Positions 5,301-8,300 of a DNA stretch of 64,000 bases are shown here, one piece after another. The position numbers were made by a program, and so were the translations under genes. The notes under the pieces were generated by a model. It did no database searches, was not told the DNA's origin, and saw only the letters and a program-made list of their open reading frames with translations. How positions within the stretch are numbered: position 1 is the first letter of the stretch; the number at the start of each line of letters is the position of its first letter. This DNA is from Yuukianura sp. NJ FZ-2021 (lineage: Eukaryota), in assembly GCA_046563655.1 (NCBI GenBank), contig CM102290.1:2914001-2978000 (forward strand), in the 5' to 3' direction.

Positions 5301-8300
5301 TATGTACGTATGCACATGCATACATGTGCACGATATGTATGCTAAGGGGTAAACTGCAATATACCATTCAAGCGTGAGCCAGTCAAACTATACCTAATTA
5401 ATATAAAAGTATGCTAGTAAAACGATTAAGTACGACTACTATATTTCCTGTCAATTGAAGCAGCGGGAAAATGTGAACGGGTGGGGACAGGCGCGTCGCC
5501 CAAGTTTACTTCAACCCAGTTCTGTGGATTAGTTACCTAGGACACTATTGTGTGAGAAGACACGAACTGTGTTTGAAAGAGCAACGAACTCGTTGACGAG
5601 TCCGTCGGTTCACTTAGCAACATTCTATGTTCGGTGACGCGATTTCCTGAAACACTGTTCATCGTTTCGTGACATCACTGCAGATCAAGAACTATTATTA
5701 GACCAGCAAATCATGGATACACCTCAAGAGATGGACAACCCAGAGTCAGTCAGGTAAGTCAAAGTTTTTACATCCAGGGCTACCGGTAACTGTAGGTTCC
5801 CCTTCCCCTATCTAACGGGAGTGCATGTGAAGATGATTGGGTATAAGTAAAGTCGATTGATGCTAGTACATTCTAAGCAAGGTACGTTTTGGTTTTAGCA
5901 AAATGGATGCGAGCAACATTTTCAATGAGATGGAAGTAGAGGATCCCAACATCTATACGGGCGAAGCGAAACCGGAGTTTGTTTATGAAAACCTGACGTT
6001 GGATGAAATCATTCAACTGAAACGAGCGGAGGATCCGAATTATGCTAGACTTACTGGAGGAGGGATTCGATATGGTACTGACGACACTCGAGTTGGCTCT
6101 ATTTTGCCCACTCCAATATTCGTTTTAAAGTGTCTCGCCGACGATGGCAAATTGATCGAGATGGAAGCAAAGGAACTGACGCGTGCAGCAGCAGTTAACA
6201 CAATTACCGACTTTCGGGCCCATCGTTGGAGGGTGACGTGGACACATGAGGACGTGCAAGGTACTAATATGTGGCGATCGGCTAACGGTTGATTCGCTTA
6301 TGCAATATAGTGCATAGGTAGCTACTATGATGATTGTGCTTGTTTTTCTGTCTAAGGAATCAGTGAAGCTCCTAGGAAAATGATGGCTAAACAAGTTGCG
6401 GCTCTGGACCTGGTTGAAAAATTACGTAAACGCTTCCCAAACTATGACATGCAAGACTGTGAAGTTCCAGCTGGAGCCGTGATTAATCCGTACCTGTTTA
6501 CACTTTTGGAGAATACCTGTGTAAGAATGGGTTACGGTCCGCCTGAATATCATTTGCAAATTAATAGCGGGAAAGGCAGGAAGTTCTATGCATCAATTTG
6601 CTACATCCACGATGAAATTTTTATCGGTAATTACCTGAACATGTTTAAAACTCCAATTGCATTACCTGAGTCGTCCAACGTTCCGTTTGTGTTTTCGAAC
6701 AGGGAAGAGCTTTGACGAGATGTACGCCAAGCGTTTTGCTGCCAAACGAGCTTACGAGTCTTTGATCGGGATGCCGTATCCCGGTGACGAAATTGTTAAA
6801 GGAGACCAATGTTCGCAGAATCCAGACCAGTACCATGCCGTAGAATCAGAAGCCACGCATGTCTATTACTTGTACAAGGTATGCTCTTGCTAAACCCTCT
6901 TCTACCTTTTCTAAACTTCAACAAACAAGCATATGAAAACAGCTGATCTGTATCTTTCCTTGCTGCAGAAACAACGTTCTCTGAGTCGAGCTTCTCATTC
7001 GGGGGTGTCGTCGCCTGGAATGTCCCGATCTAGCTCTTTGACGTCACTCTCTGAAACTGGCGGTGTTACCAAAAACCGTCCACCTCGACTTCGGCCTCCG
7101 CCGATTAGCATGTCTAAAGAACTTAGACTTGCAGTAGAGGAAGCAAAACGTTTAGAGCAAATCAAGGCCAATGCACCCAAACCAGCTCCGTTGGTCCCTC
7201 CATGGAATGGTTTCGACGAATACGTCGAAATTGAGGATCCATTCAAGTACGAGGGGCTAGACGATGATGATGAGGAAATTGCTGAGATACTTGCAGGCTT
7301 CATGAGTCTTGAAGCTGCACCACCATCGTCTTCATCTCCTTAAAAGCTAAAGAGCCTTATTCTTTTCTTCTTTTTAGATCTTTTCCTACTTTTGTATTTA
7401 CTCTCTTCTACTCTACGTAGAATTTCATATATTGAACTTAGAATAAAATCTTTTCAGTCTTTAGAACTCTTCAGAACTTTTGTAGAAGTAGAACAAGTGT
7501 AGCCTATTGGAATTTTATTACTAAAAGTGCGGAACTATAGACTTCGAGAAAAAATTCTCTTTTTCAAAAGTCTATTTTCTACAATGCATAGCTATTAGGT
7601 AAAGGAACAGTAGGTGAAAGTCTTTCATCTTTCCATTACTCTCCATAATTCTTCCAATTTTCTTCTTTTTTCAAAAAAGTAGCCATTTGAAATGTTCCTT
7701 TTTCAAGTTATATTTGAAGGCGTGAAGATCTAATGATGAGGAAATCCTTCTTTCCCTACATCTATTCTGAACAGTCGAACGAACTCAATTTTCAGTGCCT
7801 GAAAAAGTGGAAGTGAGGCAGGCACGAAAATTTGTGTTTCGTTCCGCATGTCCTATGTTCACTGTTAACTATAAAAACCCGAATATGAAAAAAAAAATGA
7901 GAAATAGGAAAAAAAGGCTGTTGGAATTTTTGTATCTATTTGACACGCACCAACACACTCTCTTCTATTATTTGTAACGGGAAAATTGAATTCGATGTTT
8001 TTAACAATTTTTTTTGGTGAGTTTCTCTTTAGTTACTTTTCGGAAACGAGAATGCTAATGGAAGATCAGAAATTAGAAAAGGGAATGAAAAAAAAGAGAA
8101 TGTTGCTACAAGTCCAATGTAACTGTAACCAGGGAACAAAAAAATAGCGCTTGACATTTTCTTGATTTTGTTTTTGCCAAAAGTTGTTCAACTGAAGATC
8201 AAACGGAGACAACAACGTAAATACGACAGCTTCGCCATTTTCAAAAAAAAACCTAACAAAGAACAGCGTATGGGAGAAAAAAAGCTGAACAATGGAATTC

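Follow-up and report, generated by a model that had tools for sequence, protein, structure and literature searches.

The window, that is, the whole 64-kb stretch of DNA that was analysed, carries within an intron of a KCTD gene an apparently intact five-exon gene of a springtail family of tandem dsRBD (dsRNA-binding domain) proteins, whose product probably works as an RNA-binding unit with flanks that recruit partners. Cofactors that bind dsRNA are fast-evolving and decide the entry of RNA into the RNA-interference, editing, localisation and antiviral pathways. The locus also offers a lesson for annotation, namely that a whole gene can be concealed in the intron of another one; in the stop-to-stop list of open reading frames of the window, it appears as four unconnected fragments.

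The five exons listed below splice into 1224 nt, corresponding to 407 codons followed by TAA, with zero internal stops and with GT...AG borders at all four introns. The start ATG at 5713 has A at position -3 and G at position +4, and an in-frame stop is found 75 nt upstream. The features of the locus, in positions of the window, are the following:

3322 to 9455, + strand: intron of the KCTD8/12/16-like (KCTD12-like) host gene, GT-AG, phase 0; encloses the entire dsRBD gene
5713 to 5753, + strand: exon 1, with the ATG, 13 codons and 2 nt; GTAAGT donor
5899 to 6260, + strand: exon 2, with the acidic N-terminus, the LDEII helix motif, the IRYG.DDT strand, and dsRBD1 from helix 1 to strand 3
5993 to 6028, + strand: N-terminal helix motif of LDEII type, residues 46-57, conserved
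6107 to 6433, + strand: predicted dsRBD1, residues ~84-160, split by intron 2 (6261-6356)
6357 to 6626, + strand: exon 3, with helix 2 of dsRBD1, the linker, and dsRBD2 from helix 1 to strand 3
6479 to 6770, + strand: predicted dsRBD2, residues ~176-247, split by intron 3 (6627-6702); RNA-contact lysines degenerate
6703 to 6878, + strand: exon 4, with helix 2 of dsRBD2 and the family-specific C-terminal extension, including the ESE..HV strand
6969 to 7343, + strand: exon 5, with a Ser/Pro/acidic tail predicted to be disordered; ends with TAA
7080 to 7103, + strand: tail motif PPRLRPPP, also in the related protein P0001 and in the last exon of the related locus L001
7227 to 7277, + strand: acidic tail motif ..P.KY..DDDD, 17 residues, with counterparts in P0001 and L001
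7442 to 7447, + strand: poly(A) signal AATAAA, 99 nt past the stop

The original prediction had joined four open reading frame fragments via four GT-AG introns into a stop-free frame of about 407 aa with a short first exon and an AATAAA downstream, and our reconstruction reproduces each of these elements. Judging from its sequence, the gene is genuine and intact and codes for a protein, with a start codon, a stop codon and a poly(A) signal of its own. The weakest part of the model is exon 1, the least certain of the five with its 13 codons, and the ATG at 5903 could be an alternative start; what speaks for exon 1 is a single observation, the similarly short first exon of L001, which likewise ends in phase 2. 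A scan of the whole window with Rfam returned no family at gathering thresholds.

Two relatives back the gene model. The gene product is colinear with the database protein P0001 (430 aa) over residues 21-390, with 50% identity (E-value of 1e-116), and the alignment is gapless at junctions 2/3, 3/4 and 4/5. P0001 itself is an uninterrupted product encoded on a contig no longer than 1599 nt, as would be expected of a processed transcript or of a copy without introns. The other relative is an intact orthologue on a metagenomic genomic contig, L001, located with a degenerate DNA pattern, which found this contig only; it consists of six GT-AG exons encoding 423 aa and shows 53% identity to the window product over residues 11-295 (E-value of 1e-111). 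All four introns of the window gene are matched in L001, in identical phase and displaced by no more than one codon, and L001 has one extra intron. Between the two loci, the conserved DNA is exonic only. A search for related loci with P0001 as the query yielded no confirmed locus, and the protein collection that was searched held no product of the window gene itself, the best match to exon 2 having 61% identity.

The host gene was delineated with Pfam, which places BTB_2 at 2259-2567 of the window and the KCTD8/12/16 H1 domain in three pieces on the + strand, with domain positions 1-41 at 3151-3396, 41-83 at 9456-9587 and 83-116 at 11764-11898. As H1 pieces lie on both sides of the dsRBD gene, all of them on the + strand, the latter sits within a KCTD intron and shares the strand of its host, as had been claimed at the outset. 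On L001, no KCTD exon was found around the orthologue, and an RpS28-like gene lies ~0.7 kb downstream of it; the window has no RpS28-like gene. Within the 3 kb that L001 spans, there is hence no sign of a conserved nesting.

The evidence for the dsRBD fold comes from a profile of the relatives and from the AlphaFold (AF2) model of P0001, which is 50% identical to the window product, while Pfam was run on the separate exon pieces of the window. In that run, the exon 3 piece matched dsrm with 19.1 bits (E-value of 0.002), below the cutoff of 23. The Pfam dsrm profile had no match in P0001, and among 18 relatives three were above the cutoff, eight list dsrm at E ≤ 1e-1 and ten had none. Compared to the PDB, the family profile matched 37 sequences (E ≤ 10), and every molecule name listed was that of a dsRBD-containing protein; the best matches were Staufen1 dsRBD3-4 (4.4e-8) and TARBP2 (5.3e-8), with Loqs at 2e-6, R2D2 at 0.08 and RDE-4 also matched. 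The profile alignment places dsRBD1 onto Staufen1 dsRBD3, and dsRBD2 onto both TRBP dsRBD2 and Staufen1 dsRBD4.

The P0001 model displays two α-β-β-β-α modules with pLDDT > 90, the values being ≥ 92 in nearly all blocks of 91-260 with dips at 111-120 and 201-210. The first module is made of H87-96, E101-108, E123-129, E132-138 and H141-159, the second of H180-191, E197-206, E209-218, E221-227 and H230-246, and the C-terminal extension adds H258-262 and E269-277. Past residue ~290, pLDDT falls below 50 and the last ~120 residues are predicted to be disordered; no element of a third dsRBD is seen there in the model, and Pfam detected no dsRBD in exon 5 of the window. When the model was submitted to Foldseek, TRBP dsRBD1-2 came first (1.9e-7), then R2D2, Loqs-PB, DRB4, MLE and ADAR2; VIA-align gave Z 10.0 for TRBP dsRBD2 and Z 9.9 for R2D2, the latter over 137 residues across both domains with an rmsd of 3.8. 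The gene product is thus predicted to carry two dsRBD folds, and the two divergent domains proposed from the DNA alone have been borne out by profile and model.

Sequence searches delineate the family to which the gene belongs. HMMER with P0001 against 1.84 billion representatives gave 27 matches at E ≤ 1e-3, with no Loqs, TRBP or PACT protein among them. Twenty clusters were looked up, eight short HMMER matches being left out, and all nine that bore an organism name were from springtails (Allacma fusca, Orchesella cincta and O. dallaii); the named relatives are labelled as uncharacterized or DRBM-domain proteins. A further profile search returned four proteins, one of which, P0029, was a new member. 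The family tree has four well-supported groups, and both named genera, Allacma and Orchesella, occur in several of them. Taken at the level of sequence, this is a multi-gene tandem-dsRBD family of at least four clades, so far named in springtails (Collembola) only. It also appears as a family distinct from Loqs/TRBP/PACT, R2D2 and Staufen, and 1:1 orthology of the window gene to Loqs or to R2D2 was looked for in the profile comparison and among the HMMER matches and was not found. The suggestions that the gene is lineage-specific and that its flanks are unlike those of known dsRBD families hold up too, since nine of nine organism-named relatives are from springtails and the flanks match no described family. 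By this distribution of the family, the window itself would come from a springtail; its 675-aa open reading frame at 34618-36645 matched a single protein, with 72% identity. In the limited library of literature that was searched, no paper on dsRBD proteins of springtails or Collembola was found.

In a type A dsRBD, the RNA contacts include a Lys-Lys..Lys set where helix 2 begins and a His in the loop between strands 1 and 2. The dsRBD1 of the window reads R-K-M-M-A-K at the start of helix 2, with Met in place of the second Lys of the Lys-Lys pair, and A-H-R before strand 2. Over the 22 rows of the alignment, its basic positions are kept at R141 (16/22), K/R142 (17/22) and K/R146 (17/22), and 12 rows have His or Arg ahead of strand 2. 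The equivalent stretch of dsRBD2 reads E-M-Y-A-K, where the last Lys alone is kept; the two positions of the Lys-Lys pair are occupied by E and M in the window and are basic in just 3/22 and 6/22 rows, respectively. In the C-terminal extension, G258 and C261 are each found in 22/22 rows. By sequence, then, dsRBD1 seems to retain most RNA-contact residues and dsRBD2 to have lost the Lys-Lys pair. That pair is described as important for dsRNA binding in a study that reads a dsRBD without it as a protein-contact domain (PMC7144943).

The flanks of the two domains contain short conserved motifs. Across 29 family sequences, 21 LDEII-like motifs were counted, compared to 1.4 expected from shuffles. 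This count is inflated by the kinship of the sequences, P0020 and P0028 having a common N-terminus, and the motifs are confined to clades A to C. Long Orchesella paralogues harbor three to four LDEII-like copies, with RG-rich boxes at their end. Pfam found no match in exon 2, which holds the LDEII motif of the window gene. The equivalent residues 48-58 of P0001 are modelled as a helix with pLDDT ~80, and this helix together with the next strand has pLDDT of 66-85. Helix and strand may be packed on the domain in the model, in which case the motif would not be a free peptide. A complex prediction of the P0001 N-terminal extension (38-82) with the core (83-290) yielded no verdict, its score being 0.00. 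In our reading, the LDEII motif may resemble the UAP56-binding motif of ALYREF, UIF and Yra1. According to PMC7744094, the UAP56-binding motif of ALYREF adjoins RG-rich regions, and in this and a second paper (PMC7744094, PMC7614608) other export adaptors are described as having nothing in common with ALYREF except such motifs.

In the reading that we hold to be probable, the two dsRBDs, the structured N-terminal extension and the C-terminal extension with its invariant G..C would form one compact RNA-binding unit. The main contact to an A-form RNA duplex would be made by dsRBD1, through the basic RK..AK with which helix 2 begins and the His/Arg before strand 2, and dsRBD2, with its Lys-Lys pair lost, would chiefly serve as a scaffold or as a protein-contact surface. 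The disordered flanks would recruit partners through the conserved motifs, namely the 11-residue N-terminal one, PPRLRPPP and the acidic ..P.KY..DDDD, and these motifs are testable handles toward such partners. As for the identity of the partner, we only tentatively suggest UAP56/TREX, in which case the protein would act in the nucleus as an adaptor of double-stranded or structured RNA and not as a partner of Dicer. Broader still, and unlikely as it stands, is the scenario in which springtails, reportedly without R2D2, evolved their own expanded tandem-dsRBD family with one to four UAP56-binding helices of ALYREF type, in some members with RG boxes, that passes nuclear double-stranded or structured RNA to TREX export. 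If true, these proteins would be the first dsRBD-based export adaptors of mRNA or dsRNA and would constitute a lineage-specific route feeding nuclear dsRNA to cytoplasmic RNA interference.

Several rival explanations were weighed against the reading as an RNA-binding unit with recruiting flanks. One is a cofactor for Dicer-2 or RISC loading that would stand in for R2D2 in springtails and whose tandem dsRBDs would hold a small-RNA duplex in the manner of R2D2 and TRBP. The top whole-unit structural matches are indeed RNA-bound small-RNA cofactors (TRBP dsRBD1-2 with siRNA, R2D2 in the Dicer-2 complex, and Loqs-PB), and a survey of wingless hexapods reports Dicer-2 and Argonaute-2 to be present and R2D2 to be found in 0/12 transcriptomes (Dowling et al. 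2016, PMC5521735). Given that no R2D2 is reported in wingless hexapods, a separate, expanded springtail dsRBD family is a concrete candidate for dsRNA handling. However, we consider a role as a Dicer cofactor improbable: a third, Dicer-binding dsRBD is missing in a protein whose C-terminal ~120 residues are predicted to be disordered, the R2D2 profile E-value is high and Staufen ranks above Loqs, and the likeness in fold is one that dsRBDs share in general. Moreover, the same survey reports Loqs orthologues in wingless hexapods and suggests Loqs as a possible compensation (PMC5521735). A similarly low probability attaches to a pure protein-protein adaptor in which both dsRBDs no longer bind RNA, of type B like TRBP dsRBD3 or Staufen dsRBD5. 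The rarity of basic residues at the pair positions of dsRBD2, the single lysine of the pair held by dsRBD1 of the window, and the Pfam dsrm scores below cutoff in most members are in its favour; the conservation of R141, K/R142, K/R146 and the His/Arg before strand 2 in dsRBD1 argues against it, as this is the pattern expected under selection for RNA contact.

The same-strand nesting and the failure to find the gene's own product in the protein collection would also suit a non-functional locus, either an unexpressed relic or exons used solely within KCTD host transcripts. This is very unlikely in view of the intact 407-codon frame, the canonical splice sites, the start with an upstream stop and the separate poly(A) signal; in addition, the L001 orthologue is equally intact, its 3-kb contig having an RpS28-like gene nearby and lacking any KCTD exon, and P0001 is uninterrupted over 430 aa. 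That the gene stems from a transposon or a virus and suppresses RNA silencing, the transposon having been raised in the original prediction, appears extremely improbable. Many viruses carry dsRBD proteins and several of these match the model structurally, but the viral matches are generic, with at most 18% identity, and no better than the cellular ones. Furthermore, the gene has a single copy in the 64-kb window, no terminal direct or inverted repeats frame it, and its four spliceosomal introns are conserved between species, with positions kept across ~50% protein divergence.

Among known systems, the TRBP/Loquacious/PACT families resemble the window family in having two N-terminal tandem dsRBDs with a short linker; they provide the best structural matches (Foldseek with TRBP dsRBD1-2 and siRNA as above, VIA-align Z 10.0 and 9.6) and are the nearest language-model clusters. 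Loqs, TRBP, PACT and R2D2 carry a C-terminal third dsRBD that binds Dicer, whereas the window family is predicted to lack this domain, is only 15-22% identical to the TRBP/Loquacious/PACT proteins in structural alignments, and has N- and C-terminal extensions of its own, with the invariant G..C, and other tails. The two dsRBDs of the P0001 model can be fitted jointly onto R2D2 dsRBD1-2, and R2D2 too is a fast-evolving, lineage-restricted dsRNA-binding protein, reported absent from wingless hexapods (PMC5521735); yet the model has no structured C-terminal Dicer-2-binding domain, and no orthology to R2D2 is detectable. Of all PDB entries, Staufen dsRBD3-4 scored highest with the family profile, and the aligned stretch extends through the two domains together with their linker. 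The full Staufen protein comprises four to five dsRBDs plus a Staufen_C region, as against two predicted dsRBDs and unrelated flanks in the window protein. With ALYREF, UIF and Yra1, the putative likeness is a short acidic-hydrophobic helix, ..SLD(D/E)II..K/R, near the N-terminus, present in multiple copies with RG-rich boxes in the long paralogues; the window protein has no RRM, its helix may belong to the folded unit of the model, and UAP56 binding is putative.

The closest system in concept to the preferred reading, compared by description, is Blanks (Drosophila CG10630), with no kinship in sequence seen other than the dsRBD fold. In PMC7144943, Blanks and NF90 are described as lineage-restricted or nuclear proteins with two dsRBDs, the Lys-Lys pair being retained in the one that binds dsRNA and lost from its neighbour, and Blanks is proposed as an exporter of nuclear dsRNA. 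The order is reversed in the window protein, where dsRBD1 is the better preserved domain, as opposed to dsRBD2 in Blanks.

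The stop-to-stop ORF list for 5200-7900 contains the four large plus-strand fragments that the original prediction had described as disconnected (5867-6292, 6356-6715, 6639-6893 and 6915-7343). Joined with a 13-codon first exon, they give 1224 nt, i.e. 407 codons followed by TAA with no internal stop, as had been claimed; all four introns start with GT and end with AG, and the announced AATAAA is present downstream. The start ATG at 5713, with A at -3 and G at +4, lies 75 nt downstream of an in-frame stop, ATG 5903 being an alternative start. The gene and its host comprise the following features (plus strand; exons by splice joining).

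2259-2567, plus: BTB_2 piece (Pfam)
3151-3396, plus: KCTD8/12/16 H1 domain, positions 1-41 (Pfam)
5713-5753, plus: exon 1
5899-6260, plus: exon 2
6357-6626, plus: exon 3
6703-6878, plus: exon 4
6969-7343, plus: exon 5
7442, plus: AATAAA (sequence scan)
9456-9587, plus: H1 domain, positions 41-83 (Pfam)
11764-11898, plus: H1 domain, positions 83-116 (Pfam)

The host is of the KCTD8/12/16 type, with BTB_2 and an H1 domain spread across three exons, at 3186-3321, 9456-9586 and 11764-11898 on the plus strand. Its exon end at 3321 and exon start at 9456 bound a 6.1-kb phase 0 intron (GT...AG); the dsRBD gene, flanked by H1 pieces, is therefore nested on the strand of its KCTD12-type host, in line with the proposed same-strand nesting. 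Its poly(A) signal inside the host intron could compete with host transcription. The same intron also holds a long inverted repeat (4157-4374, plus strand; 54-nt arms, 83% complementary, 110-nt spacer), which precedes the dsRBD gene by 1.3 kb and folds into one hairpin (MFE -113.2 kcal/mol, z -10.7 versus shuffles); it matches no Rfam family, has no second copy within the window, and could be a foldback/MITE element or a hairpin-RNA locus.

Elsewhere in the window, a 675-codon Ser/Pro/Arg-rich open exon (34618-36645, plus) has a 657-aa protein as sole match (72% identity), and neighbouring ORFs (37406-37888) could be part of that gene. By eye, we noted ionotropic glutamate receptor-like pieces (17955-23754, minus) and ORFs resembling Mago nashi (28918-29247, minus), tetraspanin (41260-42606, plus), ubiquitin hydrolase (60526-60975, plus) and signal peptidase subunit 3 (63219-63590, minus).

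The nested gene itself is new: with exon 2 alone as query against the collection's longer proteins, the best match was P0001, a 430-aa JGI record (61% identity), and none was near-identical. Over residues 21-390 the joined product is colinear with P0001 (E 1e-116, 50% of residues identical), without gaps at junctions 2/3, 3/4 and 4/5. A degenerate DNA pattern retrieved L001, a single 3-kb metagenomic genomic contig whose minus strand carries an intact orthologue with six GT-AG exons (423 aa; 53% identity to the window product over residues 11-295, E 1e-111). All four window introns have a match there of identical phase that is displaced by one codon at most, and the DNA alignable between the two loci is exonic only. 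Its first exon is likewise short and ends in phase 2, which is the sole support for exon 1. As far as sequence can tell, the window frame is a real gene and not a product of chance, and a relic is unlikely because two orthologues are intact.

The L001 orthologue has an extra phase-1 intron (2227-2291, minus) within strand 1 of dsRBD1, between EME and AKEL, which is absent from the window gene and represents a gain or loss inside the clade. No KCTD exon was found on this 3-kb contig; an RpS28-like exon (by eye; 150-320, plus) is convergent to the orthologue, about 0.7 kb beyond its stop, and the RpS28-like gene has no counterpart in the 64-kb window.

Pfam dsrm scored 19.1 bits on the exon 3 piece, below the cutoff of 23, and did not match P0001. 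A profile of the family alignment (24 sequences) matched 37 sequences of the PDB (E up to 10), all listed molecule names being dsRBD-containing: Staufen1 dsRBD3-4 came first (4.4e-8, spanning both domains), the other best matches were TARBP2 (5.3e-8), RDE-4 (1.7e-6), Loqs (2e-6) and PKR, and R2D2 reached 0.08. The fold was read from an AlphaFold2 model of P0001, the 50%-identical relative, built with the same alignment, which shows two alpha-beta-beta-beta-alpha modules.

Module 1, P0001 residues: helix 87-96, strands 101-108, 123-129 and 132-138, helix 141-159
Module 2, P0001 residues: helix 180-191, strands 197-206, 209-218 and 221-227, helix 230-246

The pLDDT is at least 92 in nearly all blocks of 91-260, with dips at 111-120 and 201-210, and falls below 50 at residues 1-37 and beyond about 296; near the N-terminus, helix 48-58 and strand 70-72 score 66-85, and a C-terminal strand spans 269-277. 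Foldseek against the PDB returned TRBP dsRBD1-2 with siRNA first (E 1.9e-7), ahead of R2D2, Loqs-PB, DRB4, MLE, ADAR2 and NF90. Profile matches, model and structural matches together confirm the two divergent dsRBDs originally proposed. The closest language-model clusters were the TARBP2, Staufen, PACT and Loqs families (scores 0.87-0.90).

A HMMER search with P0001 among 1.84 billion representatives (E up to 1e-3) gave 27 relatives, of which 12 reach 1e-10 and three 1e-30, query counted; Loqs, TRBP, Staufen and R2D2 are not among them. In the 20 clusters looked up, eight further short matches being left out, all nine that name an organism are springtails (Allacma fusca, four; Orchesella cincta, two; O. 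dallaii, three), labelled "uncharacterized", "unnamed" or "DRBM domain-containing" at source, which fits the suggested lineage specificity. Judged by this distribution of the family, the source of the window is probably a springtail as well. In a maximum-likelihood tree built from 22 core sequences, four groups are supported, and one of them unites the window protein, L001 and P0001 (99/96); as Allacma and Orchesella are each spread over several groups, the duplications are old. In the numbering of the window protein, G258 and C261 of the C-terminal extension are invariant (22/22 rows), as is A237, and C189 is kept in 16. What is new is a separate, expanded family that seems limited to springtails and has extensions and motifs of its own. 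The flanks of the window protein carry the following short motifs.

5993-6028, plus: conserved motif of 11 residues, letters not shown (sequence comparison)
7080-7103, plus: conserved PPRLRPPP (sequence comparison)
7227-7277, plus: acidic ..P.KY..DDDD, common to the window protein, P0001 and L001

Across 29 family sequences we counted 21 LDEII-like motifs where shuffling predicts 1.4 (maximum six over 500 shuffles), a count that includes two inside the core and is inflated by relatedness. Long Orchesella paralogues carry three to four copies and end in RG-rich boxes. Of the paralogues, the long P0010, P0020/P0028, P0025 and P0004 have three to four N-terminal SLD(D/E/Q)xI motifs with low-complexity spacers, and RG-rich boxes terminate P0010, P0025 and P0028. 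We take the motif to resemble the N-terminal motifs through which ALYREF, UIF and Yra1 bind UAP56, and by this likeness UAP56 is a possible, rather doubtful partner of the window protein, the more so because the N-terminal helix has moderate pLDDT and may pack on the domain. Published passages on such motifs describe short helices acting in multiple copies, adjoining RG-rich regions in ALYREF, and the sole feature common to export adaptors (PMC2828547, PMC7614608, PMC7744094).

In HMM alignments to Staufen1 and TRBP, dsRBD1 of the window protein has K-M-M-A-K after R141 at the canonical Lys-Lys-x-x-Lys of the helix 2 start (R141 in 16/22 rows, K/R142 and K/R146 in 17/22 each), and a His or Arg stands before strand 2 in 12/22. 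The equivalent positions of dsRBD2 read E-M-Y-A-K, the first two being basic in three and six of the 22 rows. A Blanks study reports that mutating the Lys-Lys pair weakened dsRNA binding, and interprets a dsRBD lacking it as a protein-contact domain (PMC7144943). With the basic positions better kept in dsRBD1, this precedent suggests that RNA contact would fall mainly to dsRBD1, dsRBD2 serving chiefly as a scaffold or as a surface for partners; the degenerate dsRBD2 also makes a pure protein adaptor possible.

A transposon or viral origin was rejected because the window has one copy, no framing repeats were found in it, the introns are conserved with L001 and the viral structural matches are generic; the suggested transposon-borne modulator falls with it. 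An R2D2-like Dicer cofactor is attractive since PMC5521735 reports Dicer-2 and Ago2 but no R2D2 from wingless hexapods, but in the window protein a third domain for Dicer binding is missing and there is no special sequence affinity with R2D2. A full-text literature search found no publication on springtail dsRBD proteins; the dsRBD fold and the tandem arrangement are already known. By VIA-align, the P0001 model resembles TRBP dsRBD2 (Z 10.0), R2D2 (Z 9.9; 137 residues over both domains, rmsd 3.8) and Loqs-PB (Z 9.6).
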